DNA of 64,000 nt from the NCBI GenBank assembly GCA_004431415.1, contig QPMI01000035.1:62001-126000 (forward strand), written 5' to 3'. The stretch comes from Cyanophora paradoxa CCMP329 (lineage: Eukaryota; Plantae; Glaucophyta). This document shows positions 32,406 through 64,000 of the stretch, one piece after another. Position 1 is the stretch's first letter. Each line of letters opens with the position of its first letter. A program made the translations under genes and the position numbers. The notes beneath the pieces were generated by a model. It made no database searches and was not told where the DNA came from. It worked only from the letters and a program-made list of their open reading frames with translations.

Positions 32406-32856
32406 GACTATGGCTGGCCCTGGCCGTGCATAACCTACGCTGGGAGCGTTGCTTCTAGAAGCGCATCCGATGATCAGCGCGCGCGCTGCTGCCGGACCGC
32501 GGCGCTACCAGGTCAGGCAGGTGTGTCGTCGATCCCCACCAGGCTAGGGAACTTGCAGTTGTGCCAGGGTACATGTACAGTCGCTCCGTAAAAAGCGATC
32601 GCGAGCGAGTTTACCAGCTCCGATCCGGCCACACTGCCGCCACAGTACCGGTACCAGGCCAGGCTGGGAAATTAATATTGCAACTCGGCAAACGCCGCTT
32701 ACCTTTTGCTGCCAAATTTGACATTTGGGACCTGCGAACTTCGGAACTACGGCTGGTCTGAGCTTGGAGAAGCAAAACAATGCCACTGGAAACCTTGCCC
32801 AATGGTGTAATTGTCCATTTCATTTGTTAAGGAGTAAAAAAACAAGCGGTTCCAGC

Positions 32857-33371
32857 CAGTGATGTTAACCTTACCAGTAATATTCTGTAATATACATTAT
32901 AATAATGCATTATAATAATATTATTGTAATAGTGCCACTTTCCGGGGTTACAGGTAATATAAGGTGTATTACAGGTTGGAAAGACCCCCTTATTTCACGA
33001 GCAGCAGCGCTCTGCGACGTACCTACACGTTATTCAACAACATACAAGCTATATTTGACAGTTCTGATGACCAGGAAGCTCTTTAACAGCCCCGTTCGAC
33101 CTTGCTTGATGGGGTACCACTGTAGCGTGCCTCAAAAGGACTCTTAAACCTTGTTAGCAATAAGCTTAAAGTCACATCTTGCATCTTTCACGTGATAAGA
33201 GAGTGTTTCGGACAGATTAGCATCAAGAATAAGCAGCGCAGGGGTGCGGGAATGGGGTTTCTATGAGGTATTACAGGTAATATAGTATAATATTAGTAAG
33301 GTTTATTTTTAAAACATTAAACATTATCGGTAATAGTGCATTTTTGGGATTAATTAGTAATAACATCACTG
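32857..33371. mobile_element. Non-autonomous hAT-type DNA transposon (MITE), 515 bp
   Basis: Perfect 11-bp TIRs CAGTGATGTTA (32857) / TAACATCACTG (ends 33371). 8-bp TSD GTTCCAGC at 32849-32856 and 33372-33379. AT-rich interior with subterminal ttacaggt/taatat repeats. Confidence 0.9.
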
Positions 33372-33567
33372 GTTCCAGCCCGCATAGTACTGTGGTTTAA
33401 TTTCGGGTAGCCATGGAACCCTTTCGCTGGCGGAAAACGCCAATCATTTACTACAGCAAGTCGACTCAAAAAGCTTCAGTCTAAAACTTACTCGGGCGAT
33501 TTGGTGATTGGACAATTTAAATCATAAAGGATTCTGATCGGTTTCTGGAGCTACTTGATTATCGCCC

Positions 33568-33750
33568 TGGGAGCGTTGTTGGCTTCTAGAAGCGCATCAG
33601 CGCGCGCGCTGCCGATCGGCCGCGCGCTAGCAGGCCGGTGAGCGCGCTTCGTTAATCGTCCGCCGCCGCCGCGAGTTTGGGGTTGCGAATGCAGCTGCCG
33701 GGGTACAGTCGCTCCGCCTTAACAGAGCGAGTTTACCGGCTCCACGATCG
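33568..33750 (+). repeat. Degenerate direct copy of 32441-32625 (upstream region of the histidine kinase gene)
   Basis: Shared blocks gggagcgttg..gcttctagaagcgcatc..agcgcgcgcgctgc and gtacagtcgctccg..gagcgagtttacc.gctcc. Confidence 0.75.
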
Positions 33751-34178
33751 CGATCATGCAGGGCGCGCGGATAACTTAGTAACGTGGCCGGTCGGCCGGC
33801 GCCGCGCGCGCGCAGGGCCGGCTGCGCATGCGCCGCGCACGCCGGCGATCGATCGAGGCATTAACAGTGCATGTCATTGCATTCGCGCTGATCGCTGATC
33901 GTGCACGCACCGGCTCGCTCCATGATCCACCTTGTACATGCGCATGTGTGTCATTGTGTGACACTGCAGCTGCAGCTGACACGTGCAGCTGACACGTGCT
34001 CGTACGCGTGCTCGAGCTAGCGCTCTCGTTTAATTTCCAAGTTCGCCGTCGCGGCGATCGATATCGATCGCGGCGTCACGGCGTCACCCGCCACCGTGGC
34101 ACGGCCCTCCCCGCCCGGGCCCGCCCCCCGCCGCGCAGTCCCCGGCCCGCTGGCGCTGCTCTTCACGCCCCTCTTCCT

Positions 34179-44378: not shown

Positions 44379-44439
44379 GCTAGCTGCAGCCCATTTCGCT
44401 GCAGCCCTCCGCTGCGCCGGCCGCTGGGGCGATATATCG

Positions 44440-47400: not shown

Positions 47401-48878
47401 CTCGAGCTCCGCCGCCGCCGACGACGACGATGCCGCCGACGCCGGCGTCGACGCCGACGCCGTCCGCCGGTGCGCCGCGGCGTACATAGACTCTGGGCCG
47501 GTCTCTAGATCTTAATAGATCTTGGATCGGGGGGTGCAATATTAATTTATTGGACGCGATCGAAATCGGCGCCAAACATCGGACGCATGCAGGGTGCACG
47601 AGCTGCGGCGCCGCATCGCAGGCGAGTCTCGGAAGCGGGACAAGGCCAGGCGCCGAGAGGAGGAGGAGGCGCAGCGGCGGGCCGAGGAGCAGCGGCGCGA
47701 GGAGGAGCGGAGCGCGCGGGAGGAGCTGCAGCGGCGGGAGCGGGAGGAGCGGGGGGAGCGCGAGCGCAAGGAGGCGCGCCGGCGGGAGCGGGAGCGCAGG
47801 AAGGAGGCGAGGCGGGGCGAGGCGGACGATCGCGAGGCGGAGGCGAAAGCTAAGGCGGAGGCCGAGAGGCGGCGGCGGAAAGAGGATGATGATGAGGAGA
47901 AGCTGGAGTCCGAGCGCCGCCTGAATTCGAATTCGAAGGAGGAGCAGCATGTGCAGCTGCAGCGCTCGGGGGATCCAGAGCGGCATTGGCGGGCTTCGAA
48001 TTCGATTTCTGGTGGATCTGGATCCGCAACTGGAGGCGCCGCCGCGTGCTTCTTCTTCGCGAAGGGCACCTGCCGCGGCGGGGCGCAGTGCAGGCGGGTT
48101 CTTCGCTCTCTAGATATTATTTTTATTATAATTCCTGTTGACTTTAAAACGGCGTTCTGGCTCTTCCGAGCTCTTATATATTTTTATATCGTAGATTCAG
48201 GCACGACGTCGACGTCGATCCCGCGGCGGCCTCTGCAGCTCTTCCCGAGGATCCGGACGCTCGCGATCGCGATCAGCAGCTGGCCATGGAGCAGCGGCTC
48301 GAGCGGGCGCGGCTCGCCGAGCACGAGCGGCGGGGGCGGCTCTGGTGGGCGGCCCGGGACCGCGAGGAGGCGCGGCGGCGGGAGCGGGAGCGGGAGCAGG
48401 AGCGGCGCCGGCGGGAAGAGGAGGCGCGGCAGAGCGCGGGGGGCGCCCACGACGTCGACCGGCCCCAGCTGCAGCCGCCGGCGGCAGAGCTGCAGCTGCA
48501 GCCGTGCCGCTTCCACGCGAAGGAGGCGCGGCGGCGGGAGCGGGAGCGGGAGCGGGAGCAGCGCCGGCGGGAAGAGGAGGCGCGGCGGTGCGCGGGGGGC
48601 GCACGTGATGTGGACCGGCCCCAGCAGCCGGTGGCCGAGCTGCAGCTGCAGCCGTGCCGCTTCCACGCGAAGGGCTTCTGCCGCGACGGCGCCCGGTGCG
48701 GGTGGGCCTTGTTCGGATGATCATGATCATGGTCATTAATTACGCATTTAAATTTCTAGGCTTCGCGATCGAATTCGCGGCTGTTCACGCTGCGCGCTGC
48801 GCGCCGGGCAAGTACCGGCACGAGACGACGGCCGCGGGGGACGCGCCGGCGCCCGCGGAGTGCGCCATCAAAAAATGA
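44440..48878 (+). CDS. CCCH zinc-finger protein with hydrophobic N-terminal segments and charged coiled coils (multi-exon; 3' end abuts viral insertion)
   Basis: ACFFFAKGTCRGGAQCR|FRHD and QPCRFHAKGFCRDGARC are CCCH-type starts. E/R-rich coiled coils. Hydrophobic exons at 44600-45800 may belong to this gene (uncertain). Confidence 0.55.
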
Positions 48879-49589
48879 GAGAGAGCCCACCGCGGTGGCC
48901 CACCCCTCTCCGCCACCCCCATCCCATCACCACCTCTCTCGCTGCACCAGCCCTAGCGTCCACCCCGCTATCACTCCAACCCCGCTCTCTCGTTACGTCT
49001 ACCCCGCTCTCTTGTTACGTCTACTATCCGATTCCCTAGGTCGAAGCCTAGCAATATCTGACGACTATACAAGGCAGAGGAGACAACAAGAATAGGCGAA
49101 GAGGAGCGCTGCCCCCATGAGCGCGGTCTGCAGAGCAACGGGGCAGAATAGGCTAGACGATATTAATGTGTACAATGAAGCTAACAGAGGAAACACGTTT
49201 AGCTCAATTCTAGACGATATTAATGAGTACAATGAAGCTAACAGAGGAAACACGTTTAGCTTAATTTTAGGCGATATAGATGAGTACGATGAAGCTAACA
49301 GAGGAAGCACGTTTAGGTTAATTTTAGGCGAAATGATGAGAACATTGAAGCAACCAGAGGAAAAGCGTTTAGCTCTATCTAGGCGATAATGATGAGTACA
49401 TTGAAGCACTTCGTGTCCCAAGAGCGCTCTGGTGCGGCCTCTGGAGAGAGTAACTTTTTACATTCACTGTAATTCCTAGCTTGCCATGAGCAGCACCAGT
49501 GACATGTTATAAAGGAATAGCACCGCCCTATAGTAACGAGCGGTTGGTTGCGCGCTTTCTCCGAAAATCTTTTGGAGCGCTATTGTTAA
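48878..49589. repeat. Probable left terminal inverted repeat / non-coding terminus of the element
   Basis: Starts (AG)4, followed by palindrome CCACCGCGGTGG (48887-48898), a duplicated ~22-mer accccgctctct.gttacgtct (~48979-49022) and a 57-bp array. The partner TIR is not in the window. Confidence 0.6.
49154..49410 (+). repeat. Tandem array of ~4.5 x 57-bp units
   Basis: Unit starts tag(a/g)cga at 49154, 49211, 49268, 49325, 49380. Core gatgagtacaatgaagctaacagaggaaacacgtttag. Divergence increases rightwards. Confidence 0.9.
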
Positions 49590-52500
49590 ATGGAACGACG
49601 GTTTGAGATCGCGCGGCTCAAAGAGCAGATAGCAGGCCAGGCCGAGGTTTTGTACAATCGCAGGTTTATTCATGGACAATTTAGAAACAAACTACAGCGC
49701 ATCAGTGCGAGTGGCTCACGTACGAGACTACCGACACTTAAGAAATACGCATCACTTTTGAACGAGCTTTCAACAGTACCAAGACCGCCGAGACCAGTTT
49801 CAGCTGCTCGGCTAGAGGTTGCTATTGCTGAGGGTATTGTAGCAGGATTTTCAGAGCTTCCCGATCCGAGTGTGAGCGAGTTCAGCGAAACTGAAATTGC
49901 AGAGGAGGGCGGCACAGTGACGACACGTACAGCGCTGAACGGGACATACGCTGACTGGGAGTACAGGCCCTCACGTGGAACAGGCCGAGTCACGTCGATG
50001 CAGGCACAGATTGAAAATAACGCGAGGTTCAGAGCAGGCGCAGTGGCATTTGCGAGCGTGCAGCAAGAATTAGCGAGTCAGGATCGAATGGGTATAGCTT
50101 TGCAGGTATCAGGAGTTGGACTCTATCGCAAGCCAAATGAAGACTCAGCGCTTGCAGTAGTGATTGAGCACAGGAAATTTTACCGTATACTCCCAGGGTC
50201 AGACGTTGTTGAGGCGATCCGCTCACAGCTGGAGGAGCTAGATACTATTGCGCAGGAAAAGAGCCGTGATTCTTCCGCTTTCGAGACATGGATTAAGCTA
50301 CGCTTTACAGTGATTAGATATTTTAGACGTATGGGCGGCCGTGGACGTGGGTTTGTACTTCCGAGCTGGCTTGCACTCAAGCAGGCCTTGATCAATATCA
50401 ATGCACCAAACAACGAGTGCTTTAAATATGCTGTCCTCGCAGCGCGCAATCCGCTGGCCCCAGGGGTGGATTCGAGACATGCAGGAAGCTATCGGCAGCA
50501 CGAGGCATCGCTAGATTGTACTATGCTAACGTATCCGACACCACTCGATTCGAAAATGTTCAGCAAATTTGAGTGTGCGAATAATGTTAAGCTATGTGTA
50601 TACACGACTGCGCTAGACAAACAAGACATCGTTCCAATCCACATAAGCGCAGCAACAGATGCTATACCAATACTGTACGTGCCAGCAGGCGACGGGAATG
50701 ATGTGGGGCATTATTTGTGGATAAAGAACATATCGCGCCTGTTTGGAAAGCATGGGTCGAATGCGAAGCACTATTGCCTGGCCTGCCAGTGCGGCTTTAG
50801 CTCAGACGAGGCCTTTCAGAATCATCTTAAATACGACCGGTGCCTTGATCGAGATGAGCACGCCAGGGACGTGCTTCCGAAAAAGGGCGAGCACTTTATA
50901 AAATTCAATAGTTTCGAAAAGACGATTCGCCAAAGACTAGTTGGGTATGCGGACTCGGAAACTATGACTGTACCTGTTTTACAGACCGAGAGTCCAGCAA
51001 AGACGAAGCAGCTAGGAGTCCACGCAATAGCGTCGATCGGCTGCTTAGTTATTCTAAACAAGGGGCAAAATCAAGGAACGAATGAAACTGTAGAAAGCGT
51101 TGAAAATTCAGAGACGATGCAACAGGAGCAGTTTTGGTTCTCGCATATGGGATCACAAACTGAGGAGTCTGCAGAGGCATTTGTTGCTTGGCTAGATGAA
51201 AAAGAGCCGCAGTTTAAGGGAATCTTGGAGGAGAAAGCGACGATGCAGATTACACAGGCGCAAGAGCGCTCCTTTCAGGCAGCAGAAACATGCTATATGT
51301 GTGGAAGCGAGTTTAAAGAAGTCAAAGATAAAAATCGAGATCACTGCCACGACTCCGGGCAGTATCTTGGAGCGGCATGCAATGCCTGCAACAGGCGACG
51401 AGCAAAAGCTGCCGCCGTGCCAATATTCTTTCACAATGGACGAGGATTTGACTTTCACCTATTAGTGAGGGCTTTAGCAGCAGGATATAACCGGCGGAAA
51501 GTCGCAGAAAATGCATTCCGAGACGAGGTCGAGCGCAAGTTTCAAGCAAAATACGCAGGACGTGAGCTGAGTACAGATCATGCAATAAATGCAAAGAAGC
51601 GACTTGAGCGTGAATTACGTCCTCGTGAGTTACTGTCGACGAAGTTTGACCAGGTGTTTCAGAACAGCGAGCGTATGTCACAGTTCACATACGGCATTTA
51701 CGTTTTCCGTGACTCTGCTCAGCACCTGCAGGGTAGTCTCGATAGCCTTGCGGCTGCAGTACCTGATGTGAAAAAGAATATCACACGTGCACTACATGAG
51801 AGCGAGACACGGTTCAAACTAATGACGCGCAAGGGTGTCTATCCATACAAGTACATTACGGGCTGGGATCGTCTTGCAGAGACATCACTACCAGGACGCC
51901 GCCAATTTTACAATGAGCTAAAACAGTTGAAGTGCTCTCGTGATGATTATATCCACGCTCAATCGGTCTGGCGTGAGCTTGGTTGCAGGACAATGGCTGA
52001 CTATACATTGGAGTACATGAAGACAGACATAGCTCTTCTAGGAGACATATTTGAAAACTACCGTGACACGTGTATGGAGACGTATAAGCTGGACCCAAGC
52101 TACTTTATGAGCATTCCAGGTTTCTCGTGGCAAGCAGCTTTGAAACACACTGGCCAGCAACTGGAGCTGTTTCACGAAGGGCAAGAAGATATGCACCGCT
52201 TTATTGAGAAAGGGATTCGGGGAGGAATCTCGATGATATCAACACGCTATGCTAGAGCTAATAATGCCTGGATTGATAAGTACATCGTGGGTCACAGGAA
52301 AAAACAGGGCTGGTTACTTTATCTCGATGCGAATAATCTTTATGGACTTTCTATGAAACAGAAACTTCCTACAGGGGACTTCAAATGGGAGAACATTAGT
52401 ATTACTACTGATCCTAAACTGTATATCACAGACCTAGATGCAAACGGTCCACGAGGGTTTGCTTTGGAGGTTGACATGCATTGTCCTGAAGATCTGCATG

Positions 52501-53633
52501 ATTATTTCAGCGATTATCCGCTAGCTCCCGAGCGAATGTGCGTATCAAAAGAGCACCTATCAGAGGCGCAGCGAAAAACTATTGAGCGTGAAAAACTAAG
52601 CGGGATCGAGAGAACGCCAAAGCTGGTTCCAAACCTGTTGCCAAAGAAGAATTATGTTGTTGATGCACGAGTGCTACAGTTTTATGTGTCGATGGGAATG
52701 GTTGTTTCTAGAATACACAGAGTGCTTTCGTTCGAGCAAAGTGCATGGCTAGAGAGCTATATCGATTTGAACACTCTGAAGCGAAAACAGGCAGAATTCC
52801 CGTATGAAAAAGATCTTTATAAGCTACTAAATAATGCGGTGTTTGGGAAAACGATGGAAAACGTACGCAAGCACTGCAATTCAGAGCTTGTGACAACAGG
52901 AGAACGACTAGCGAAAATCAACACAGAGCCGAACCGCTTGAGACAGGTCGCTATCTATGACGAAAACTTGGTGTATGTAAATAAGCGAAAGAGCGAATAC
53001 AAACTCAACAAACCGATCTACTGTGGGTTCACAATCCTTGATCTATCAAAGCTACATATGTATCGGTTTTACTACCAGGTGCTGAAAGCGCTTTGGGGCG
53101 AGCGGCTTAAGCTACTTGGAACAGATACAGACAGTCTCATTATTCAGATTGAGACCGAAAATTTATACGAGGACCTTCGCAAAATCAAAAACGAGCTAGA
53201 TGTTAGTGAATACCCTACGAGTCACCCGTTCTTTGAAGGGATGTCAGAAGACGAAGTGCAGCGACTAAGATCGATGGGCAAGGTTCCCGGGCTGTTCAAG
53301 GACGAGTGTGGCGGCAGACAAATGCTTGAGTGGATCGCGAACCGACCGAAATCGTACTATATGAGCACAGAGGAATCACAAGTGCACAAGTGCAAGGGCG
53401 TTAACAAGACGTTCAGCAGCTCGCTGACACGAGAGCGATACTACGACTGCATCTTTGGGGGCATATCATGCAACGTAGATGGAATTCTCGGCTTCAGATC
53501 GAAACAGCATCGGATCTGGCTACAGCGGACATCAAAGCAAGCCCTACACCCGCTTGATACCAAGCGATTCCTGTGCGAGGATGGTGTGAACACCAGGGCG
53601 ATAGGTCACTATAAAAATCTTTCGAATAACTAA
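49590..53633 (+). CDS. polB: Protein-primed family B DNA polymerase polyprotein (putative TP, OTU-like protease, C2H2 finger, exonuclease with Endo VII insert)
   Basis: 1347 aa intact ORF. ExoI YADSET, ExoII FHNGRGFD, KGVYPY, ExoIII YMKTDIALL; Pol A YLDANNLYG, Pol B KLLNNAVFGK, Pol C GTDTDS. CYMC...RDHCH..G.Y.GAAC..CN (Endo VII-like). ININAPNNECF...GHY. Confidence 0.96.
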   Translation: MERRFEIARLKEQIAGQAEVLYNRRFIHGQFRNKLQRISASGSRTRLPTLKKYASLLNELSTVPRPPRPVSAARLEVAIAEGIVAGFSELPDPSVSEFSETEIAEEGGTVTTRTALNGTYADWEYRPSRGTGRVTSMQAQIENNARFRAGAVAFASVQQELASQDRMGIALQVSGVGLYRKPNEDSALAVVIEHRKFYRILPGSDVVEAIRSQLEELDTIAQEKSRDSSAFETWIKLRFTVIRYFRRMGGRGRGFVLPSWLALKQALININAPNNECFKYAVLAARNPLAPGVDSRHAGSYRQHEASLDCTMLTYPTPLDSKMFSKFECANNVKLCVYTTALDKQDIVPIHISAATDAIPILYVPAGDGNDVGHYLWIKNISRLFGKHGSNAKHYCLACQCGFSSDEAFQNHLKYDRCLDRDEHARDVLPKKGEHFIKFNSFEKTIRQRLVGYADSETMTVPVLQTESPAKTKQLGVHAIASIGCLVILNKGQNQGTNETVESVENSETMQQEQFWFSHMGSQTEESAEAFVAWLDEKEPQFKGILEEKATMQITQAQERSFQAAETCYMCGSEFKEVKDKNRDHCHDSGQYLGAACNACNRRRAKAAAVPIFFHNGRGFDFHLLVRALAAGYNRRKVAENAFRDEVERKFQAKYAGRELSTDHAINAKKRLERELRPRELLSTKFDQVFQNSERMSQFTYGIYVFRDSAQHLQGSLDSLAAAVPDVKKNITRALHESETRFKLMTRKGVYPYKYITGWDRLAETSLPGRRQFYNELKQLKCSRDDYIHAQSVWRELGCRTMADYTLEYMKTDIALLGDIFENYRDTCMETYKLDPSYFMSIPGFSWQAALKHTGQQLELFHEGQEDMHRFIEKGIRGGISMISTRYARANNAWIDKYIVGHRKKQGWLLYLDANNLYGLSMKQKLPTGDFKWENISITTDPKLYITDLDANGPRGFALEVDMHCPEDLHDYFSDYPLAPERMCVSKEHLSEAQRKTIEREKLSGIERTPKLVPNLLPKKNYVVDARVLQFYVSMGMVVSRIHRVLSFEQSAWLESYIDLNTLKRKQAEFPYEKDLYKLLNNAVFGKTMENVRKHCNSELVTTGERLAKINTEPNRLRQVAIYDENLVYVNKRKSEYKLNKPIYCGFTILDLSKLHMYRFYYQVLKALWGERLKLLGTDTDSLIIQIETENLYEDLRKIKNELDVSEYPTSHPFFEGMSEDEVQRLRSMGKVPGLFKDECGGRQMLEWIANRPKSYYMSTEESQVHKCKGVNKTFSSSLTRERYYDCIFGGISCNVDGILGFRSKQHRIWLQRTSKQALHPLDTKRFLCEDGVNTRAIGHYKNLSNN

Positions 53634-54562
53634 TGGCACCCTCATTCAAAATCACTGCACCACCAGGGGCATATCAAGTCGACATACTTTTCATAGGACG
53701 TTTTCGACTATTTGCAGCGATTGAGATTGCAACTCGATTCGCAGTTGTCAGAAAGCTTGAAGATGCTAAACAGATTCCGAAATTCATCGCTCAGCTGCCT
53801 GGGATCTGGGGTTTTTCGGGCGACAATGGCTTTAATACGGCTGCTGTGCGGGCAATGGCCGAAGAGAATTCATTTTCGATGCACACTGACGTCGCTAAGG
53901 ATGATCACATATCGAAAGGCGACAAGCTAGGGATCATCGATCGATTCGCACGGACATTGCGAGCCATGATTCAGGCAGACACAGAGGAACGAGGGTCGCC
54001 GAATTTTCTCTCCCGGCTGCCTGCTTTGATCAAGGCATACAATCAAACAAAACACAGCTCTTTTGGCAGAGAGTATTCACCAGCCTGGATGCGAGATCAC
54101 CCGCAGGTTGCTGCCCAGCTGCACCAGGTGCGTCAACGACAGAACGACATTGAGAGAGACGCATTGAATCTACCAAAGCCAGGGACTGAGGTGCAGATAC
54201 TCGAGCCTAAGAGCAGAATCTTTGCGAAGGGAGCTACAAAACCGAGCAAGGAGACGTACGCAGTCGTGGGGCAGGACAGGAACCGAATAAGGGTCGCAAC
54301 CAAAGAGGGACAGATATTAAGCCGTAGAATCAAGCCTTCAGAAATTCGAGCCCCGAGACAGCTTCCGAATCAGTCAAAAATAGAACGAGCTGCGGCTAAG
54401 GCAAAGCAAGAGCGACAGCTACGGCGCGAGGGCCTCATCGAAGCAAAAAAGTATAGCGGACAGAGTCGGCAAGCTCGTGAGCTCAAGAAACTAGAGGTTG
54501 CAGGGGAGCCTTTGCTGCGGTTAGGCAGTAAGGTCGCTGGAAACTATGCCCGCCGCAATTAG
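53633..54562 (+). CDS. int: Retroviral-type (rve) integrase
   Basis: YQVDIL, AIEIATRF, SGDNG, LGIIDRFARTLR, YNQTKHSS; basic C-terminal tail. Overlaps the polB stop as TAATG. Confidence 0.92.
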   Translation: MAPSFKITAPPGAYQVDILFIGRFRLFAAIEIATRFAVVRKLEDAKQIPKFIAQLPGIWGFSGDNGFNTAAVRAMAEENSFSMHTDVAKDDHISKGDKLGIIDRFARTLRAMIQADTEERGSPNFLSRLPALIKAYNQTKHSSFGREYSPAWMRDHPQVAAQLHQVRQRQNDIERDALNLPKPGTEVQILEPKSRIFAKGATKPSKETYAVVGQDRNRIRVATKEGQILSRRIKPSEIRAPRQLPNQSKIERAAAKAKQERQLRREGLIEAKKYSGQSRQARELKKLEVAGEPLLRLGSKVAGNYARRN

Positions 54563-54838
54563 CGACCTAATTTCAGTGCGCCTTCGCTCTCGGTATTTTC
54601 GGTCGTTGTCAAGTTTTCGTTCAGGGTGTGCAAGGTTATATTGACGGGAGACAGCAATCTGCCGCTGCCGGTAATCTGGATTTTCATGGTATCGCTTTCG
54701 CTGCAGATCTGCACGTCTTTTGCGTCTCTCTGCAAGTATCTCTGGCGTAACCTCAGTACGTATGTGCACAGGCTTATCAATATTCTTGCGAGGCCTGCCT
54801 CGTGGACGGGAAGCAGTCGTGATTTCCGCACTGTCCAT
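54521..54838 (-). CDS. Small basic DNA-binding protein with AT-hook
   Basis: RPRGRPRK AT-hook, then an R/K-rich helix ERRKRRADLQRKRYHENPDYRQRQ...KYRERRR. Confidence 0.7.
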   Translation of the reverse strand: MDSAEITTASRPRGRPRKNIDKPVHIRTEVTPEILAERRKRRADLQRKRYHENPDYRQRQIAVSRQYNLAHPERKLDNDRKYRERRRTEIRSLIAAGIVSSDLTA

Positions 54839-54939
54839 TATGAGTGGGTATGTGATTGATATATAGGAAAGAAATTCGAGAAACGTTTATGGCGCGTTCA
54901 AATCGAAAAATTAAATCGCAGCGGTTTATATAAAACAAA

Positions 54940-55200
54940 ATGGTCGCAGGAACAATTCGATTTGGGAAGTACCGCGGTGAAACTCATCTTAAAGTAGTTT
55001 TTAGCGACCCAAAATATGCGGAATGGTTGTTATCTTGGCCGCATCTTCGTGAGTACGACAAAAGGGAATTGCAGCGGGCCTTTGAAATTTGTCAATCGAA
55101 TGATCTGGCAACAGTAAACGGGATGCTTGAATATGTAGAGCGAGAGAGGAAACCTACTGTGGAAGATCTAACAGATTTGCCTGATTTTGACTTGTCTTAA
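54940..55200 (+). CDS. Small protein with FGKY.G...D..Y..WL motif (DUF3820/ExoX C-terminal-like)
   Basis: IRFGKYRGETHLKVVFSDPKYAEWLL. TATATAAAAC precedes the ATG. Confidence 0.65.
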   Translation: MVAGTIRFGKYRGETHLKVVFSDPKYAEWLLSWPHLREYDKRELQRAFEICQSNDLATVNGMLEYVERERKPTVEDLTDLPDFDLS

Positions 55201-55232
55201 AGAGATCTCAATCTCAGATTGTAAAGAGAGAC

Positions 55233-55796
55233 ATGGAGATCGTAGTTCCTGAAGGCGCTGTAGCAATCCCGCTTGGTGGAATTCGCAATCGACGTAAAGT
55301 CATCGTTGCCTATGCACTTGTGTCGCAGGATGATGCTCAACGTGCGCTCGGATTTCGCTGGCGTTTGGATAAATATGGATATGCCAAAACCACGATCAAT
55401 CATAAGTGTGTGTTTTTGCATAATTTCATCTCTGGTGAACTCGAAAACGGATTGACTGTTGATCATATAAATCTGAACAAACTTGATAATCGTCGCGAGA
55501 ACCTGCGACTGGCAACAAAGCGGCAGCAGAGTTTGAATCGTGGTCAGCAGCGAAATAACACCAGCGGTTTCATTGGTGTATCGTTCCATCAGCAGCGTGG
55601 AAAATGGCGGGCGCAATATCAGATAAATGGTCGCAAAAAGCACATCGGATACTTTACCACTGCTGAAGCTGCTGCTAAAGCCAGAGACACCTATGCCCTT
55701 GATCACACTTCCGAATCTGATCGTCCATTCCTGCGTCTGAATTTCACAGACGAATCCGTCTCCCCCCAAGAGCTCCCTTCATCTGCGACCCAATAG
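55233..55796 (+). CDS. HNH endonuclease with C-terminal AP2 DNA-binding domain
   Basis: LHNFI...VDHINLNKLDNRRENLR (HNH) followed by NNTSGFIGVSFHQQRGKWRAQYQINGRKKHIGYFTTAEAAAKARD (AP2). Confidence 0.92.
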   Translation: MEIVVPEGAVAIPLGGIRNRRKVIVAYALVSQDDAQRALGFRWRLDKYGYAKTTINHKCVFLHNFISGELENGLTVDHINLNKLDNRRENLRLATKRQQSLNRGQQRNNTSGFIGVSFHQQRGKWRAQYQINGRKKHIGYFTTAEAAAKARDTYALDHTSESDRPFLRLNFTDESVSPQELPSSATQ

Positions 55797-56373
55797 CATT
55801 TGGTTCGAAAACATTTGGAGTTGCTGGTTTTACAGCTGCATCATCAAGAGCTTGTGAAGCCTTCTCTTTTTCGTTTTTCAGATAACGTAAATCTGGTACA
55901 TCCATAGGTCGATGTTTAAACATCTCGCTACGGAGCATCTCCCGTATTTTTGCGCGTTCTTGCTTTTCCTTAACGTATGATTCGATATTAGCCGATCGAG
56001 CCTCGAGATCTCGCAATTTAGCTGTTAGTTCCTCGATCTGACTCTTTGATACTGTTGCTGTCTTGATTTTTGGCCCTGAATAACGTGGTTCAGATGCCAT
56101 GGCTTGGATAATTCTAGCAGCATCATCATCGATATCAGACTGCATTTCGTTTACAGTTTTAGCCTGGCTTTGTCGGTCGTCAACCGCAGTGGCATTTGCT
56201 GCTGCCGACGCAATTGTTTTCGCTACGGGTGCGTTTAGTTTGGGGTTGCTTGCAAGCTCCCCGCTAGGATCAGCAACAGCTGCGCCTTCAGTCGACCCAC
56301 TTTCAACTAGTGGTTCAACAACATTGACCTTGCGTCTTTCACGATATCCCTTCTTAGGAATCCCTTTTGCCAT
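55744..56373 (-). CDS. Hypothetical viral protein with coiled coil
   Basis: 209-aa ORF between HNH and ATPase. Basic N-terminus; heptads IEELTAKLRDLEARSANIESYVKE. Confidence 0.7.
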   Translation of the reverse strand: MAKGIPKKGYRERRKVNVVEPLVESGSTEGAAVADPSGELASNPKLNAPVAKTIASAAANATAVDDRQSQAKTVNEMQSDIDDDAARIIQAMASEPRYSGPKIKTATVSKSQIEELTAKLRDLEARSANIESYVKEKQERAKIREMLRSEMFKHRPMDVPDLRYLKNEKEKASQALDDAAVKPATPNVFEPNAIGSQMKGALGGRRIRL

Positions 56374-56382
56374 CTTCTGTTC

Positions 56383-57114
56383 TTAAGATAATATTTTAAA
56401 ACGCCTTTTTTTAGAGATAACAGGCAATTCTTTTTTAGACTCTTCTTCTTGTTTTAGCCATTTAGAGAAACGAAAACTCTTATCTTCGACGGCTTTATCA
56501 ACGTACCAGGCAGTATCATATTTAGTTCCATCCAGGACTAGGCACTGATAATCGTGCGCCCAAGTTTGGAACAAAGCAATAAATTCATCTTTCGGGATGT
56601 GAGAAAACTCTCTATAAATTGTCTCCAGTTCGGTGTGATTAGAGTAACTGAAGAAAAAACAATAGTCAGAGTTCGATCTTATAGACTGACTCAAAGCAGT
56701 CAATTTTTGCGTCATTAGAATGGTACTGATATTAAAATGACGGCCCTGCGTAAAAAGGCGATTTACAGTCTTGCTATTTCGCAGATCAACAGTTTCAGAG
56801 GCAGCAACAAGATCATCTAAGACTAGCAATATCTGCGGCGCTTTCTTTTTGTTTTCAATCAAATTTCGCTGTGAATCAATGATTTCAGCAACGATAGATG
56901 GCTGAAAATCGTCATAAAGCTCTTTAGTTATTGCAGAATACTCGCCGTTGAATTTGGTGGCGGTAAACACAACAACTCGATTGATCTTTGGATATAACAG
57001 TCTAAGTAAATGCTTTGTGCAATAGAAAGACTTGCCGCTATTGGACTTTGAAATAAATAGGGCCTTAAAGGGAACCCTCATTTCTCCAGGCTGGAACTTT
57101 GCAAGCTCATCCAT
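56383..57114 (-). CDS. A32/FtsK-like genome packaging ATPase
   Basis: Walker A ISKSNSGKS, Walker B LLVLDD, A32 signature LFTQGRHFNISTILMTQ...SIRSNSDY. Confidence 0.93.
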   Translation of the reverse strand: MDELAKFQPGEMRVPFKALFISKSNSGKSFYCTKHLLRLLYPKINRVVVFTATKFNGEYSAITKELYDDFQPSIVAEIIDSQRNLIENKKKAPQILLVLDDLVAASETVDLRNSKTVNRLFTQGRHFNISTILMTQKLTALSQSIRSNSDYCFFFSYSNHTELETIYREFSHIPKDEFIALFQTWAHDYQCLVLDGTKYDTAWYVDKAVEDKSFRFSKWLKQEEESKKELPVISKKRRFKILS

Positions 57115-57165
57115 CAAAAAATTAAAGACTGATATTCGCAGGCGAACACAACCGCGACCATTTGA

Positions 57166-58554
57166 CTAGAGGTTAACTTTGCGAAGACCCGCAGCATCAA
57201 CAATTAGGACAGTGTGAAGAAGAGCGCGAACCTGGACGTAAATTTTGTTGTTCGCATCGTAAGCAGCAGGGTTCATGATATTCAGGAAGCAGCTGCTGGA
57301 GTTCGTCAGATCTACGAACCCAGTTTGAGCAGCATTTCGGAGCGATTTATCCCCACTAATGCAAAATGGCAAACCAGTCAGAACATACCGATTAAGAGGT
57401 GCGTCGAGATTGGAGCACTTGAAGACATCAGCGATGAGTTCGGCACCTTGCAGGAGAGGAACGGGCTCATTTGAATAAAGTCTCTGGCCATTCAATTCGC
57501 AGGAAATAGTGATATCGCGAGCATTAGCCTCGGTTTTGAGGACACTGTGTTTTCCATCAGTTTGGTTCATGTTTGGCTGCTTGCGAATGCTAACGAACAG
57601 GCCGTAGCAAAGTCCACTGATTTGAGACAGATTAATCCGGGTGGGCGCACCAGCACCAGCATAAGTAATTGAATCAGCATCAACCCAGCCGACATCGGTA
57701 GCGGGAATTGCGATTCCAGACGTTTTGACTTTCTCAATCACCTGGGCAAAAGTGGCCTCATCAATGTTGATGCAATGAGCAATAATCTTAGGATTAGAAA
57801 GCTCTGGATTGGCAGGGGTGACACTGAGAACATTGGGAGTTATATTCTGGCCGATGTTTGCTGGGGAAGCAGCAGCGGCTCCAACACTACCAAGGCCATC
57901 TTCTTTAGTGGCATCACCGCCGATGGCATATTCTGTTACAAACCTACCACCATAGCTGGTCTCGACGAAGCCCTGGGCACGATCACGGAACCAAACCTCG
58001 ACAGACACCTCGCCAGAAAGAGCACCAATTGGGAGCACAGAACCCTCCCAGGGACATGGGATTTTTACACTGAAAATACCTCCAGCACGATTTGTCCCCT
58101 GAGGTGGTGTTCCATGAAGCCAGCCACCGGACCGGTATTTCTTTTTGAGCTGAGCATCATCATTGTAAATCAGTGCGCTGTGAACAAGCCAGTCCTCGGG
58201 GACGATGTAGCTGTAGGAAGCATATTTGATTTCAATTCGCTTTACAAGAGCACCAACAGACCGCAGATAACCAGTGCGAACCAGGTCAGTGTCACCAGTA
58301 AAAGCGGTCAACTCGGGCAGGGTAAACTGGAGTTCGAGCCCCTGAAGGAAGTTGTATCTGGGAAGGAAGTAGGTGACTCGTTTACCGAAGCAGTCTCCAT
58401 AGTCATTGCTTGGGTTGACAACAACACGAACAGGCTTGGTTTGGCTCGTTAGACCCAACATAAGCTCATTGTTCATAAAGAAGTCCTTCGCTTCCTGCGG
58501 AGTTGTCAGGAGCTCTTTGAGGCCGAGCCGCTGCAAATTTTGAGTGACATCCAT
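57166..58554 (-). CDS. Double jelly-roll major capsid protein
   Basis: 462 aa from ATG 58554. FGKRVTYFLPR...LELQFTLPEL...VGALVKRIEIK...DWL...LPIGALSGEVSVEVWFR resembles DJR capsid N-domains. Lies between the ATPase and a penton. Confidence 0.82.
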   Translation of the reverse strand: MDVTQNLQRLGLKELLTTPQEAKDFFMNNELMLGLTSQTKPVRVVVNPSNDYGDCFGKRVTYFLPRYNFLQGLELQFTLPELTAFTGDTDLVRTGYLRSVGALVKRIEIKYASYSYIVPEDWLVHSALIYNDDAQLKKKYRSGGWLHGTPPQGTNRAGGIFSVKIPCPWEGSVLPIGALSGEVSVEVWFRDRAQGFVETSYGGRFVTEYAIGGDATKEDGLGSVGAAAASPANIGQNITPNVLSVTPANPELSNPKIIAHCINIDEATFAQVIEKVKTSGIAIPATDVGWVDADSITYAGAGAPTRINLSQISGLCYGLFVSIRKQPNMNQTDGKHSVLKTEANARDITISCELNGQRLYSNEPVPLLQGAELIADVFKCSNLDAPLNRYVLTGLPFCISGDKSLRNAAQTGFVDLTNSSSCFLNIMNPAAYDANNKIYVQVRALLHTVLIVDAAGLRKVNL

Positions 58555-58604
58555 CGATTTATATAATTGCAGTGAAAGAAAATAATTCTGCCGCTTCGCC
58601 AAGG

Positions 58605-58633
58605 GGCGCAGCCGAGCTGCTTGTCTGCGACTT
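58605..58633 (-). promoter_or_regulatory. Conserved intergenic motif AAGTCGCAGACAAGC..GCTCGGCTGCGCC (copy upstream of MCP)
   Basis: Reverse complement matches copies at 60612-60644 and, more degenerate, 60560-60598. Confidence 0.55.
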
Positions 58634-58656
58634 CGCTTGCGTGCCGCGAGCTTAGC

Positions 58657-59613
58657 TCAGTTTGACGAATTGATCCAAGGATATGTCTTTGACCTTTTCT
58701 GGAGCTGAAGTTTTGCAAGTTCGTAAACAACATCACCATTGGGTTCGTCAGGACCATAACGAATTTCGAGAATAAATGACACAGGAGCTCCATTTAAATC
58801 AGCGATTCGCTGCATAAAATCGTATATCTCAATAGTCACAGAGTACAGGTCCAGCTTTGAATAAACATACTTATACAAAGGAGTTGCTTCAGTTGAATCA
58901 TAGTAGGCTGTTTCGCCTGGACGGAGGGCGCTGGGAATGCTGAGCTTTGAGAAAAAGCCAGGAATTGAAGTATTGGGCATACTGACAAGGTCACCAATTT
59001 CAGGAATGCGAAGTAGCACATGATCATCGGGAGTGACATCGGGTTCATAAGCGCCTTCTATATATTGAATATCGACAGTTAAAGCCTTAGACCGAATCGG
59101 TAGAATTGATCGCAAGCCTAGCAGCTTTGCAGTTCGCTGAGCCCTAGCAACAGCCTGGTAGTTTCTGATTTCCCGCCCACCCAGGTTCGGTGCCAACATC
59201 AGAGCAATAAAGAACTCGAAGCTAGCTGTGAACCCTATTGATTTAACTGCTGAATTATACGTGCACGTGATACCAGTCCCCGTCAACCTTTCGTTTATCT
59301 TTGTCACAAGCGAGGTGACGTCGTAATTTCCAGGTGGAATTGTAATGTTATTCCAGGCTCCAAAACCTGGCTGAGGTGGGTCTGGTCCCTCATTTGCAGG
59401 ATCATATTTGCACCAATATATATACGTGTCAAACACTAAATCCTCTGCTGGATCGAGTGCATCAACTGTGCTCATTGTGTTGGGGATCTCAGCAGATACC
59501 AGGCGCACGGCTTTTACATCCTGATAAACTTTAGGCAGTCTTACTTTAAATTTTGAGGTGGATGTCAGCTCATCCGCTTGGTGGCTTGCAATGCAGACGT
59601 AGTCCGTCGGCAT
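58657..59613 (-). CDS. Minor capsid (penton, single jelly-roll) protein 1
   Basis: N-terminal IASH...SKFKVRLPKVYQDVKAVRLVSAEIPNT, ITIPPGNY, C-terminal LYSVTIEIYD...DLNGAPVSFILEI. Confidence 0.82.
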   Translation of the reverse strand: MPTDYVCIASHQADELTSTSKFKVRLPKVYQDVKAVRLVSAEIPNTMSTVDALDPAEDLVFDTYIYWCKYDPANEGPDPPQPGFGAWNNITIPPGNYDVTSLVTKINERLTGTGITCTYNSAVKSIGFTASFEFFIALMLAPNLGGREIRNYQAVARAQRTAKLLGLRSILPIRSKALTVDIQYIEGAYEPDVTPDDHVLLRIPEIGDLVSMPNTSIPGFFSKLSIPSALRPGETAYYDSTEATPLYKYVYSKLDLYSVTIEIYDFMQRIADLNGAPVSFILEIRYGPDEPNGDVVYELAKLQLQKRSKTYPWINSSN

Positions 59614-59640
59614 CTTTTTTATATCAGTTAGAGAATAAAA

Positions 59641-60556
59641 ATGGTCGAAGACAAGCATCGACGCTGCGCCAGGCTCAGCTTTGACAGTAGAGACAGAAGG
59701 CCAATCGATTCAGAGGCAAACTTTGTGCTAGAAATAAATGAACCTATAATCAATCCAGTTGCTGTTCGACTTACCCAGTGTGAGTTCGCAAACAGCCTTT
59801 ACACGAGCATTAGAGATGAGTATCTTTCGATCACCTTCCCCAACATTTGGACGGAAAATCTGGCAGTTTTTGAGCCTGGTATAATTACTACTGCAAATAT
59901 GGGCGAAACAGATCTTTACAACTTTGGCCTATCGTTTAAGTTTGAACTGGGGGAATCGTAATAGCATATTTCAAATTGTTTCGGGACCAGAGACACTGAA
60001 GATGTCTGCCTATTGCAACCGTTCCTGCACAGTAACCTGCCAGTTCAAAGCTCTATCGAATCTGCTAGGGCTGAACCGAAATGAGCCCCTCCAGCTGTCT
60101 CCTATCGTGTTTGAAGGAGGACAAAGATCAGTAACTGCAGCTGAGCGATATCTCGAGGTTGCTGGCATTCCAGTAACACCTTCACACCCTGAATATGGCG
60201 TGGATTTCACCGAAAGAATGCGGAGTGAGCCACTTGGTTATGCTGTCGAATTTCCAAAGATAATTGACATGAACAGCGACCAGTATCTATTCCTAGTCTG
60301 TGAAGAGCTTCGACCATTTGCTTCAAAGCTTCGCCGTGGGGCCAAAACAATGTGCAACTACGGGCTTGCTCGAATTCAAATGAGTCAGGACGTTGGCAAA
60401 TTCGTTTATATAAATCAGGATCATCAAAGCGAATGGATCCCCATCGAAGAGCGTCTTGTGCTGACTTCCTTGCGACTGCGCATTGTAGACAGAGATGGTG
60501 ATGATGTATTACTGAATGGATTGCCATGGTCTGGGGAGCTCCAGTTCATCACTTAG
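59641..60556 (+). CDS. Minor capsid (penton) protein 2, with one frameshift near 59925-59960
   Basis: N-part LSFDSRDR...NFVLEINEPIINPVAVRLTQCEFANSLY (59641-59961). C-part QYLFLVCEEL...ARIQM...LTSLRLRIVDRDG..VLLNGLPWSGELQF (59924-60556). Confidence 0.75.
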
Positions 60557-60559
60557 GGA

Positions 60560-60644
60560 AAGTCGCCAGAGTTGCAGACAAGCAGCGACCGCTGCGCCAA
60601 ACTGATTTGAAAAGTCGCAGACAAGCCGCTCGCTCGGCTGCGCC
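60560..60644 (+). promoter_or_regulatory. Two copies of the same intergenic motif upstream of ORF 60687
   Basis: aagtcgccagagttgcagacaagcagcgaccgctgcgcc and aagtcgcagacaagccgctcgctcggctgcgcc. Confidence 0.55.
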
Positions 60645-60686
60645 TGGGTTGCGCCCCGTTTTATTTCTTGGCACAATATATAAAAA

Positions 60687-61019
60687 ATGTCGCAGTTGAT
60701 GCCCATAGCTCAGATTGAAAAGTACTTACCGTTGATGCGGGACAAAAAAGTATCACTTGTTGCGATTGGAGATAAGCCAAGCACACAAACAAACCTAGGT
60801 TTTCTGCAAGCTTACCGCCGATTTGGTCCTGACGGAATCAAAAAGGAGCTCGCAACCAGAAACACAACTTGGTATCAGCGAAGAGAGAATTACATTAAGA
60901 GGCGACTGGGAGGGCGTAATGGAGCACCATTTTGGGAGAAAGATAAATCTGGCAGAACTATTCCAACATGTCTTGGACTCTCTCTGATTTCCTGGGCATT
61001 CATGCCGCCGCCTAATTAA
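60687..61019 (+). CDS. Hypothetical viral protein (110 aa)
   Basis: Globular-looking ORF (VSLVA..GFLQAY..WYQRRENYIKRR..PT.L.LSLISWAF) preceded by TATATAAAAA-ATG. Confidence 0.72.
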   Translation: MSQLMPIAQIEKYLPLMRDKKVSLVAIGDKPSTQTNLGFLQAYRRFGPDGIKKELATRNTTWYQRRENYIKRRLGGRNGAPFWEKDKSGRTIPTCLGLSLISWAFMPPPN

Positions 61020-62495
61020 TGTAACGTCCCCGGAAATCAAGCCGGAATGCATTCACATTTATAAATTCGTTTGTTATAATTTGCACATAGTTATATACCT
61101 GTGGGGTGAACAAATGCGAGTCACTATGCATTAGATCGAAGCCTGCCATTGTTGGGTTCGCAGCAAGCACATTTGCTAGGACCGTATTTTCAAAAAGCCT
61201 CCCATCTTGGACATATCCTAAGTTGGTCAGAATGCTGAAATTAAATAGGACTCCGGCAGCAAATGCTGGCCCATACATAATGATTTGATGTAGCTCAAAA
61301 GGCTTGGGAAACTCGACTTTAATCCAGGGATTAGGTAAAGTGCCCCCTTGGAACCCTGTTGAGTTGGGTCGCACATGAGAAGGTGGGTGCAATTCCTCAA
61401 AGTCGTTGCTTGTAATGTTTGCATCTGGAATTATAAACCAGTTGACATCAAATGGCGGCTCAACTGTTAAAGTAGACGATATGATTAGTCTCTCATCGTT
61501 CAGTAGGTCATAGTTCGCCAGTAGAAAGCTGCAGAGTGCATTTATTTTAGCATTTATTTCGATTTGTTTCAGCCATAAATCTGTCGTGGAAATCAAATAA
61601 GAAATATTCGATGGGGAGGCATCGTCAAGCTTGCTCATGACTGCAGCTGGTAGCGGAACACTTAAACGCCAGTATCTTGTTAGATTCCTATCCGCATCAA
61701 CTGGAAGCAGTTCCTGCATTTGAAAGTGCGATTCCAGCTCGCTACCAGCCATTAGCATAGAAATGATTGGGCTGCCTGAGAGGGATAGGATCCAGCCCAG
61801 TGCGCCCCAGCCTGACGTCTCCGAATTCGAAAAGCCTGCAGTCAATTGCTCACTGGCTTGGACTTCACCACAGCTAATGCTCACAAGAACAATTGGATCT
61901 TCTGCATCGTAAATTTTACTGGCGTGGCTGAGTGCAGCAACTGAGGGATTATTCAAACAGGCAATTGCCCGTCAACAAGGTTTTTGTCCCCTAGAACCTT
62001 CGGTGGAAAGAATGTAGGCGCTGCAGAAGATGCTCTCACTGCATCACGAATCAGCGTGCTTGAATATGGCCCATCCTTCGTAAAAACTACGGGCTGCATC
62101 CGAACTGTATCAAACGCTGTTATTAATACATCTTTTGTCGATTCTGCAATTGTGTAGTCCTGGGCAACGTCTGTGAGCACCGACTCCAGAGGGTTTGCAT
62201 CATAGCGGCTGCCTGAGAGCAAGCTTGTCAGTGATCTTGGATTTGCAAATATTGTTGGCAGGTTCGTTTGATATAGACTCAAGATATCACCTGCAGAATA
62301 TCGGTAAGCGAGAACAGAGCCTGGAGTTGATGGAATAGCCAAACCGGCCGCTATTATCGCCCCTGTTGAGGTGCCTGCAAAGAAATCAAACAGCTGTGGT
62401 ATTGCTTTCCCAGTAATCGCCTCAATCCGCTGTAGAATTCGGGCAATGACTATGCCACGAGCATCTCCACCTGATAGTGAGAGAATGACCTTCAT
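61012..62495 (-). CDS. Patatin-like phospholipase with C-terminal beta-sandwich (discoidin-like) domain; single frameshift at ~61970
   Basis: ILSLSGGDARG, FDFFAGTSTG (catalytic Ser), RASSAAPTFF, LVDG. Adding one G to the G-run gives DGAIACLNNP and joins the two ORFs. C-terminal PWIKVEFPKPFELHQIIMYG...YNYVQI. Confidence 0.85.
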
Positions 62496-62519
62496 TTTTA
62501 AAAGGGGGCTTCTATAAAA

Positions 62520-64000
62520 ATGTCCTACATCTTGAAGAAGCCAGTGCCACTTCGTAGATCTCCAGATTTCGTTGATGATCGACTCATAAATATTCGCGTT
62601 TTCGGAAGCATCTTGGCAGACTTCAATGCTGATCGTGACATCCACAGGACCGAGTTTAGTCGACCAGCTGCATTAATTCTGCGGAACTCCCACGTTGGTG
62701 CCCCGGATATTGCACAGAGATTCTGTCTTGGTCCCACTGAGAACTTTGTTGCTGAAATTATTGGGTCCAGGCGTTGCCACGACACCTTCGCATTGCCTCC
62801 TCAGGCACAGTCTCCAAGTATGATTCCGGTAGATTGATATTTAGGCTACAAAATGATAGAGGGGTCCACACATCAGCTCTACGTCTAATTGATGAATCAA
62901 ATGATGTCGCAAACAAAACTGCAGCTCACATCACTGGGCGAATTCTCCTTGGCGAAGATGCTGCAATATCAGTGCTTGCATCACAAATTCAGCCGTTCCC
63001 TGGGATTTACTATATACCGATGCACGAGAAGCAAATCTTCTTTTCGGGTTTGATGTAAATCAAATCGATACCGAGCCAGCCACCAGGTTCGATATTCCTG
63101 GATGCACCTTCGGCTCTATCTTGATTGAGGCTGACAGGCACCTGCTCCCGGCATTGCATGATAGATATGACCTAGGGCTTCGCACCAGGCAGTGGAGAAA
63201 TATTCATGGAACTAATATTTATCAGGATGGTAAGAAGGTTAGCACCGAAGAGCAGGTTATCAACATTTTCAACTACTACTTCGGACCTATTGTCCTATAC
63301 CACCTCTTCCAGGGTTACCAAAGCCGCCAATCCCGGATGGACCTGGTCGAGAGCGAGTTGCTGATGAGACAGTTCCTTTCGGTCAACATATTGTCAGTTG
63401 GGAGCAAGTTCGCAATAAACCTATCTTCGAACCGAAAAAACAAATAGATGAACAGTATTTACCTCCTGAAATCGATATATTAGAGCTTGATGATTACCAA
63501 TTTGTCCCAGATGAGGAAGAGTTTTTACCTGACGGTTTCGACCCGCAAGAGTATGAGTATGATCAATACGACCCAAATGAGGAAGAGTATTTACCCGACG
63601 GTTTAGATCCACAAGAGTATGAGTATGAACAGAATTATGAACCCCATGAGGAATATTTAGCAGATGGTCTCGAGCCTCCTGCTGTTGAGTACGCGCAGCC
63701 TTATGAACACCATGAGGAATTATTGCCAGATGGTTTACAACCTGAGATTTTCGAGATGTACCTTGACTGGGAACAAATCAACAACAAACCAGCGAGATAT
63801 CCACCAGAGGATCACAACCATGACTGGGATGAGATCTTAGGTAAACCTGAGAAATATCCACCTGAAGATCACAGGCATGATTGGGGCGATATTGATGGAA
63901 TTCCACCTGAGTTTCCGCCGGAAGACCATAGGCATAATTGGGACGAAATCGATTTACAGCCTACTTTTGCATCAGCAGGTAATGTTATGAATGATGGGAT
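62520..64000 (+). CDS. Putative virion fibre/tail-like protein (three apparent -1 frameshifts; runs off window)
   Basis: Consecutive ORF pieces at 62520, 62774, 63121 and an open frame from ~63300 to the end. HLLPALHDRYDLGLRTRQWRNIH motif, acidic EE(Y/F)LPDG(L/F)DP repeats, and W..I..KP..YPPEDH.H repeats. Confidence 0.62.

Follow-up and report, generated by a model that had tools for sequence, protein, structure and literature searches.

An integrated Polinton-like virus of the glaucophyte Cyanophora paradoxa with a major capsid protein resembling those of nucleocytoplasmic large DNA viruses

Introduction

Small viruses whose major capsid protein (MCP) resembles that of the nucleocytoplasmic large DNA viruses (NCLDVs) have already been described. 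Bellas and Sommaruga 2026 (10.64898/2026.06.19.733378) reported groups of the size of Polinton-like viruses (PLVs) with an NCLDV-like MCP and ATPase, namely Zoravirus VC102, VC218, VC134, Zephyrvirus, VC40 and Alpensee/GKS2. RVE is present in 57-62% of Zora/VC218, the protein-primed family B DNA polymerase (pPolB) is among the replication genes of Zephyr, and switches of the replication module are frequent across PLV groups. Another such group, the Mriyaviruses, was defined by Yutin et al. 2024 (PMC11253617). How small Polinton-like viruses gave rise to giant viruses is still debated, and metagenomes, which give no host, are the only source for most of the small viruses that have an NCLDV-like capsid. 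Here we describe an MCP gene on a stretch of 64,000 nucleotides of Cyanophora paradoxa CCMP329 (contig QPMI01000035.1, positions 62,001 to 126,000; hereafter the window), which belongs to an integrated PLV.

In Cyanophora contigs, adintovirus-like PolB and integrase were found by Starrett et al. 2021. For C. paradoxa, Bellas et al. 2023 (PMC10120064, Tables S2/S4) recorded 366 MCP matches in two unnamed 'new' clusters, and Table S6 of Bulzu et al. 2025 (PMC12220804) contains 156 glaucophyte PLVs, for which rve (85), lipase (89), pPolB (PF03175; 49), a D5-type primase-helicase (38-40) and protease (0) were tabulated.

Results

The capsid gene and its relatives

The MCP gene (P0001) is a single open frame without internal stop codons. 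Its reading as a pseudogene or as the product of an assembly gap was rejected, given the uninterrupted frame and the lack of an indel within the gene among the short-read rows listed. The initial annotation had placed the gene correctly and had compared its product by eye with the capsid pattern of large DNA viruses; all five motifs quoted for this purpose were located (residues 56, 73, 100, 121 and 174). Searches with the MCP alone in Pfam (including the Polinton MCP family PF21738), PHROG and the PDB sequences yielded nothing relevant, and tblastn of phages gave no match. Matches to neuroserpin and Bagel were short or repeat-driven and were dismissed. Structure prediction by AlphaFold from the single sequence gave no usable model (pLDDT 29.8). 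As single-sequence tests were negative, the resemblance seen by eye became testable only once relatives were added.

The exact MCP sequence was absent from a collection of 15 billion proteins. A word-index search for homologues disclosed only P0002, a protein of C. paradoxa with 65% identity over the full length; the same kind of search with the ATPase of the window did not reveal a homologue. Using HMMER against 1.84 billion representatives, eight matches were obtained. Besides P0002, four of them are plausible relatives or pieces of such, whereas P0005-P0007 are repeat proteins and were dropped. Pattern scans for MCP relatives in viral contigs of IMG/VR (three scans) and in metagenome contigs gave no loci, but they depend on exact short words and do not demonstrate absence. 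The family alignment finally comprised five full-length proteins (identity to the query 65, 37, 25 and 23%), while the fragments P0008-P0010 were excluded from the profile. P0004, P0008, P0009 and P0011, which originate from unassigned ENA assemblies (contigs of 1-12 kb), constitute a distant branch of the family with 23-25% identity.

A homologue of the MCP is already in print. Row 106 of Table S2 in PMC10120064 shows a 456-aa protein with the same contig name as P0002, and its displayed part matches P0002. Its HHpred match is an iridovirus MCP (98.47%), and all six Cyanophora rows of this table have an NCLDV top match.

Profile and structure comparisons

Three reference sets were used for the comparisons. 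The NCLDV set was taken from IMG/VR with a single motif, which occurred in at least 151 loci; the first 80 of these supplied 59 proteins, of which 53 were aligned. The Polinton set consisted of IMG/VR MCPs with PF21738, and the plvB set contained presumed MCPs from mostly pPolB-bearing IMG/VR loci (no Pfam match above E 0.03). Hence, only two Polinton/PLV MCP groups were represented, without Mriyavirus, Zora, Zephyr, Gezel and TsV.

A profile made of two sequences matched the NCLDV profile with an E value of only 0.011, yet the match spanned residues 55-191, exactly the motifs of the initial annotation. The profile of the five-member family reached 95.7% (hhalign, E 8.8e-9, 338 columns), and the first jelly roll alone 96.2% with a score of 69.7, compared to at most 27.7 for 40 column shuffles and 14.0 for the reversed alignment. 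Matches of the family to the Polinton and plvB profiles were not significant (E 0.17-0.39; Polinton alone E 0.17-0.28), though these two profiles matched each other at 95%. When the NCLDV set was cut to seven or five sequences, the family still exceeded the Polinton/plvB controls in 8/8 and 10/10 draws, respectively. Judged by these profiles, the NCLDV resemblance of the MCP is above chance with the five full-length family members, but not with the single sequence, and the first jelly roll is nearer to NCLDV MCPs than to the sampled Polinton/PLV MCPs.

The ESM Atlas gave values of 0.98 for the Capsid_N/Capsid_NCLDV clusters and 0.94 for Polinton PF21738. Moreover, the predicted structure of the MCP is a double jelly roll (DJR), whose best structural matches among the PDB rows listed were PBCV-1 Vp54 and other NCLDV MCPs, at an identity of only 8-16%. 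Both the predicted fold and, at matched profile depth, a greater proximity to NCLDV MCPs than either Polinton/PLV set shows speak for the NCLDV-like MCP claimed by the initial annotation. That this resemblance would be a surprise did not hold: an NCLDV best match is usual for PLV MCPs, a homologue had been published with one, and PLV-sized viruses with NCLDV-like capsids were already described.

Phylogeny of the capsid protein and the ATPase

The MCP tree was calculated with 26 rows (five family members, ten NCLDV, five Polinton, five plvB and one virophage sequence as root). The family was monophyletic (99/97) and sister to the NCLDV group (94/93). It was located outside the NCLDV group, which had full support (100/100). 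This position bears on the possibility that a PLV took up the MCP gene, with or without the ATPase gene, from a true giant virus, e.g., one on which it depended, and that the gene diverged thereafter. Such a capture would agree with NCLDV MCPs being the closest in fold and profile and with PLVs reported to co-replicate with giant viruses (10.64898/2026.06.19.733378). However, the family lies beside rather than within the sampled NCLDV MCPs, a narrow sample whose missing orders could hold it, and the low identity in the structure alignments is accompanied by negative Pfam models: none of the five full-length members matched Capsid_N or Capsid_NCLDV, compared to 3/3 NCLDV controls at E below 1e-40. 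We therefore consider a capture very improbable.

In the ATPase tree (33/36 rows), the window sequence grouped with seven of ten ATPases from giant-virus records (97/94), the other three being placed elsewhere. After removal of three long and five near-duplicate rows, the support for this grouping was 96/92. The window ATPase was outside the Polinton ATPase group (98/97), and its union with the Polintons was marginally rejected by the approximately unbiased (AU) test (p 0.043).

Two observations were made on the reference loci. L188 and L189 (G007), ATPases from a giant-virus bin, grouped with L012 from a PLV locus and away from NCLDV A32; they are likely PLV contigs inside the giant-virus bin. 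Furthermore, a viral ORF (open reading frame) at L014:5865-7256 exhibited Pfam matches to a phospholipase A2-like domain and an ADP-ribosyltransferase.

Several data weigh against a close relationship to NCLDVs. The second jelly roll alone matched the NCLDV profile at 1.9% only, the recognition score of the ESM Atlas (1835) was below the tool's mark of 2300, and none of four strict NCLDV motif patterns matched the MCP. An HMM (hidden Markov model) of the 59 NCLDV MCPs did not report the single MCP sequence; it scored two Polinton-type MCPs with 7.3 and 5.3 bits (shuffle maximum 2.1). The structure rankings are biased, as the PDB rows listed contain no MCP of a Polinton or PLV. In the MCP tree, the support of 94/93 is under the starred level, a single long branch of a virophage serves as root, and the NCLDV set is on a long branch and narrow because it was selected by one motif. 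The best pairwise matches of the ATPase were PLV proteins (plvB; 64, 58 and 57 bits, versus 49 bits for the best from a giant-virus bin), which is partly an effect of selection, and a union with plvB was not rejected (AU test, p 0.079). Finally, glaucophyte ATPases were assigned to the PLV model in 107/156 elements and to the NCLDV model in one (PMC12220804).

Together with the fact that only two PLV/Polinton MCP groups were sampled, the ATPase data would suit an ordinary, highly divergent PLV capsid whose closeness to NCLDVs results from few PLV references and a long NCLDV branch, all Polinton/PLV MCPs resembling those of NCLDVs. In line with this, an NCLDV top match was found in 12/15 non-Cyanophora rows in two parts of Table S2 and is stated there as general for Polintons and PLVs (PMC10120064), and the Polinton profiles matched the NCLDV profile as well (E 4e-4 to 1e-3). 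On the other hand, the depth-matched tests favoured NCLDV in every draw, the family matched neither of two PLV sets that match each other, and the MCP and ATPase trees agree. Moreover, standard Polinton MCP models miss 154/156 glaucophyte elements, detecting two, compared to 110/126 chlorophyte and 462/557 oomycete elements (PMC12220804). An ordinary PLV capsid thus appears unlikely to us.

Boundaries and gene content of the insert

The MCP gene resides on an insert of at least 15.1 kb that extends beyond the end of the window and has a GC content of 46%, compared to 68% in the host (Table 1). At 48,854-48,887, the depth of the short-read contigs rises stepwise, marking the left edge. The repeats starting there likely constitute the left terminal inverted repeat, with the partner outside the window. 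Two more GC dips (51-55%), at 32000-34000 and 44400-47000, were noticed in the host sequence of the window.

Table 1. Features of the integrated element on the window
Feature	Position	Strand	Characteristics
Left end of insert	48877..49407	+	AG-repeat start at 48,877, then 22-bp and 57-bp tandem repeats; GC drop
pPolB, Polinton type	49590..53633	+	1347 aa; Pfam DNA_pol_B_2 E 1.9e-12
rve-type integrase	53633..54562	+	309 aa; hhalign 99%, E 2e-18 vs profile of 8 PLV integrases
HNH-AP2 homing endonuclease	55233..55796	+	Pfam HNH_3 E 2.3e-11, AP2 E 7.8e-6
Uncharacterised ORF downstream of ATPase	55744..56373	-	209 aa; no significant family match (Pfam, PHROG)
A32-like packaging ATPase	56383..57114	-	243 aa; Pfam Pox_A32 E 1.1e-9
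MCP (P0001)	57166..58554	-	462 aa; predicted DJR, NCLDV-like first jelly roll
Penton-like minor capsid protein 1	58657..59658	-	93% (hhalign) against penton-like ORFs from PLV loci; weak DUF5901 E 0.026
Second penton-like protein (likely), in pieces	59641..60556	+	hhalign 38%, E 3e-4 with the C-terminal piece; no significant match with the N-terminal piece
Patatin-like phospholipase, broken in window	61012..62495	-	Pfam Patatin E 1.7e-23
Long repeat-containing ORF in pieces, off window end	62520..64000	+	No Pfam match above E 0.04; repeats

The small element with pPolB and integrase genes, into which the initial annotation had placed the MCP, was recovered by the Pfam and integrase profile matches. 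The polymerase additionally contains EndoVII-like and zinc-finger stretches and is 27-38% identical to pPolBs of IMG/VR Polinton/PLV loci, which had been fetched using its own motif. The integrase alone gave no Pfam match; of the PLV integrases in the profile it was compared to, 3/3 tested have Pfam rve matches. In its acidic triad (D17, D64, D103) the third residue is D, where the references have E. Penton 1 likely starts at the second Met (59613). The patatin gene likely continues into the ORF 61012-61758, which may possess a discoidin-like domain; patatin-discoidin fusions have been reported for glaucophyte PLVs. The ORF at the window end possibly encodes a fibre protein. No cysteine maturation protease was present among the scanned ORFs of the visible part of the element, which runs off the window.

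The gene content also bears on whether the element might be a surviving transitional lineage, i.e., a full Polinton-type replicon whose capsid module stands just outside Nucleocytoviricota by vertical descent, like the proposed giant-virus ancestor. The co-occurrence of pPolB and rve would fit, as would the position of both MCP and ATPase next to, but not within, the sampled NCLDV group, and the strong divergence of the family members (23-65% identity) points to an old lineage. However, replication genes vary within glaucophyte PLVs (PMC12220804) and across all PLV groups (10.64898/2026.06.19.733378), and the combination found today is therefore not necessarily the original one. VLTF2/3, RuvC and HUH gave no Pfam match in the visible 15 kb, where divergent forms could be missed and the element is incomplete, and Mriyaviruses have more NCLDV hallmark genes (PMC11253617). 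We regard a transitional lineage as improbable.

Some features of the intergenic regions were recorded as well. Two divergent gene pairs (penton 1/2 at 59613/59641 and patatin/fibre-like at 62495/62520) start at most 30 bases apart around short AT-rich spacers. A shared motif of approximately 30 bases with the core TCGCAGACAAGC ... GCTGCGCC was detected at 58605-58633 (-), 60572-60644 (+) and 59645-59670 (+). It lies upstream of the MCP gene and of the 60687 ORF, in both cases followed about 30 bases on by TATATAAA directly before the ATG. The sequence TATAAA occurs within 12 bases of the gene start at 5/14 gene starts, compared to 7/470 ATGs in the element. The shared motif is possibly a late-promoter element, the AT-rich spacers being a confounder.

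Short-read evidence for related copies

Twenty runs contain the capsid region, all under one organism label. In 3/3 DNA runs, the summed depth over the MCP gene, which is no measure of copy number, was approximately 75-270 times that of the flank, with many substitutions. Both fit a family of many related copies. No RNA run was listed for the capsid region and run X21 covered 3/30 bins, which is neutral on expression either way. The neighbouring genes have four breaks at which every covering short-read contig departs from the window sequence and two at which only part of the contigs do so; among these sites, contigs differ at the patatin break and at the breaks of the second penton gene. Due to these differences, the breaks likely arose in assembly or are restricted to the window copy.

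The summed depth was several-fold lower over the polymerase-integrase half (49600-56000) than over the capsid half (56000-64000) in 3/3 DNA runs, which had been retrieved via the capsid region, and depth is unsuited to ranking genes. The lower value would fit other copies with a different replication module. In run X2, one contig omits 644 bases (55096-55741) across the HNH-AP2 gene, suggesting that copies without the homing endonuclease exist.

Discussion

The data are best explained by an intact MCP gene of an integrated PLV. Its product has a predicted DJR and is likely a member of the NCLDV-related grade, and the gene was likely joined to the Polinton-type polymerase and integrase by module exchange, these replication genes being either acquired or retained. 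We favour this explanation with moderate confidence. Such an element would function as follows. The rve integrase would insert the linear genome into the host chromosome. Upon reactivation, pPolB would copy it from the terminal repeats by protein priming. MCP trimers could then form an icosahedral shell, its vertices being occupied by pentons, and the A32 ATPase could fill it with the genome, while the patatin and fibre-like proteins may help entry. Presumably, the element is or was active and formed virions, perhaps depending on a giant virus.

The bearing on the link between Polintons and giant viruses, which the initial annotation had emphasized, is weakened by the swapping of replication modules in glaucophyte PLVs and by the composition of our reference sets. 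It is a tentative and rather unlikely idea that the family (the window MCP, its Cyanophora homologues and the unassigned metagenomic relatives) forms a deep lineage of its own next to Nucleocytoviricota, still carried by a complete Polinton-type replicon and with many intact copies in a culturable host. If true, it would be the nearest experimentally tractable proxy for the Polinton-like ancestor that has been proposed for giant viruses. If, as we favour, the family belongs to the NCLDV-related grade, it would provide an endogenous, many-copy example in a likely cultured alga, in which induction, virion structure and helper dependence are testable. Since both this family of capsids and the grade of small viruses to which it would belong have been published, the gain is limited to placement and host link and is not a new kind of virus. 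Our literature search disclosed no paper placing the Cyanophora capsid family in the NCLDV-related grade, and a term search did not find Cyanophora in the main text of 10.64898/2026.06.19.733378.

With PBCV-1 Vp54 and other NCLDV MCPs, the window MCP shares the predicted DJR and a similar length, but at 8-13% identity it is below detection by the capsid models of Pfam and resides in a small integrating element. Nucleocytoviricota proper have a large genome with an RNA-primed PolB and a D5 primase-helicase; the element differs from them in these negative models and in a polymerase that is protein-primed, and it lacks the Sputnik/mavirus-type MCP of Virophaviricetes. The AG-repeat terminal signature is typical of Polintoviricetes (Maverick-Polintons, adintoviruses). 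The left end of the insert shows it, and pPolB with an adjacent rve integrase, penton and ATPase are likewise shared with this class. Unlike there, the MCP has neither PF21738 nor a match to the Polinton profile, the ATPase is outside the Polinton group and the cysteine protease was not seen in the part of the element covered by the window. Mriyaviricetes (Yaravirus, Gamadviridae) also have a small genome and an MCP between Polintons/PLVs and NCLDVs, but carry HUH, VLTF2/3 and RuvC and no DNA polymerase (PMC11253617) or integrase (10.64898/2026.06.19.733378), while the window element contains both pPolB and rve.

The Zora/VC218/Zephyr/GKS2 grade agrees with the window element in PLV size, in the NCLDV-like MCP and possibly in the ATPase, as well as in rve (Zora/VC218) and pPolB (Zephyr). 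The feature of this grade, an MCP nearer to NCLDVs, was found against the two sampled PLV/Polinton sets. Mriya48 and HUH were not seen in the visible part of the window element. Further differences are that most of these groups were defined in IMG/VR, where our scans for exact short words gave no relative of the MCP family, and that no host is known for Zephyr, while the window element is endogenous. A predicted DJR MCP, an A32-like ATPase, a minor capsid protein and a GC-shifted insert with an integrase are features by which PLVs (group size 15-40 kb) are recognized, and these are present here; of the terminal inverted repeats and the target-site duplication that also mark PLVs, the window covers the left end. 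Closest are the endogenous PLVs of C. paradoxa itself, which contain the nearest homologue P0002 and whose tabulated gene content of rve, lipase and pPolB without protease fits that of the window element.
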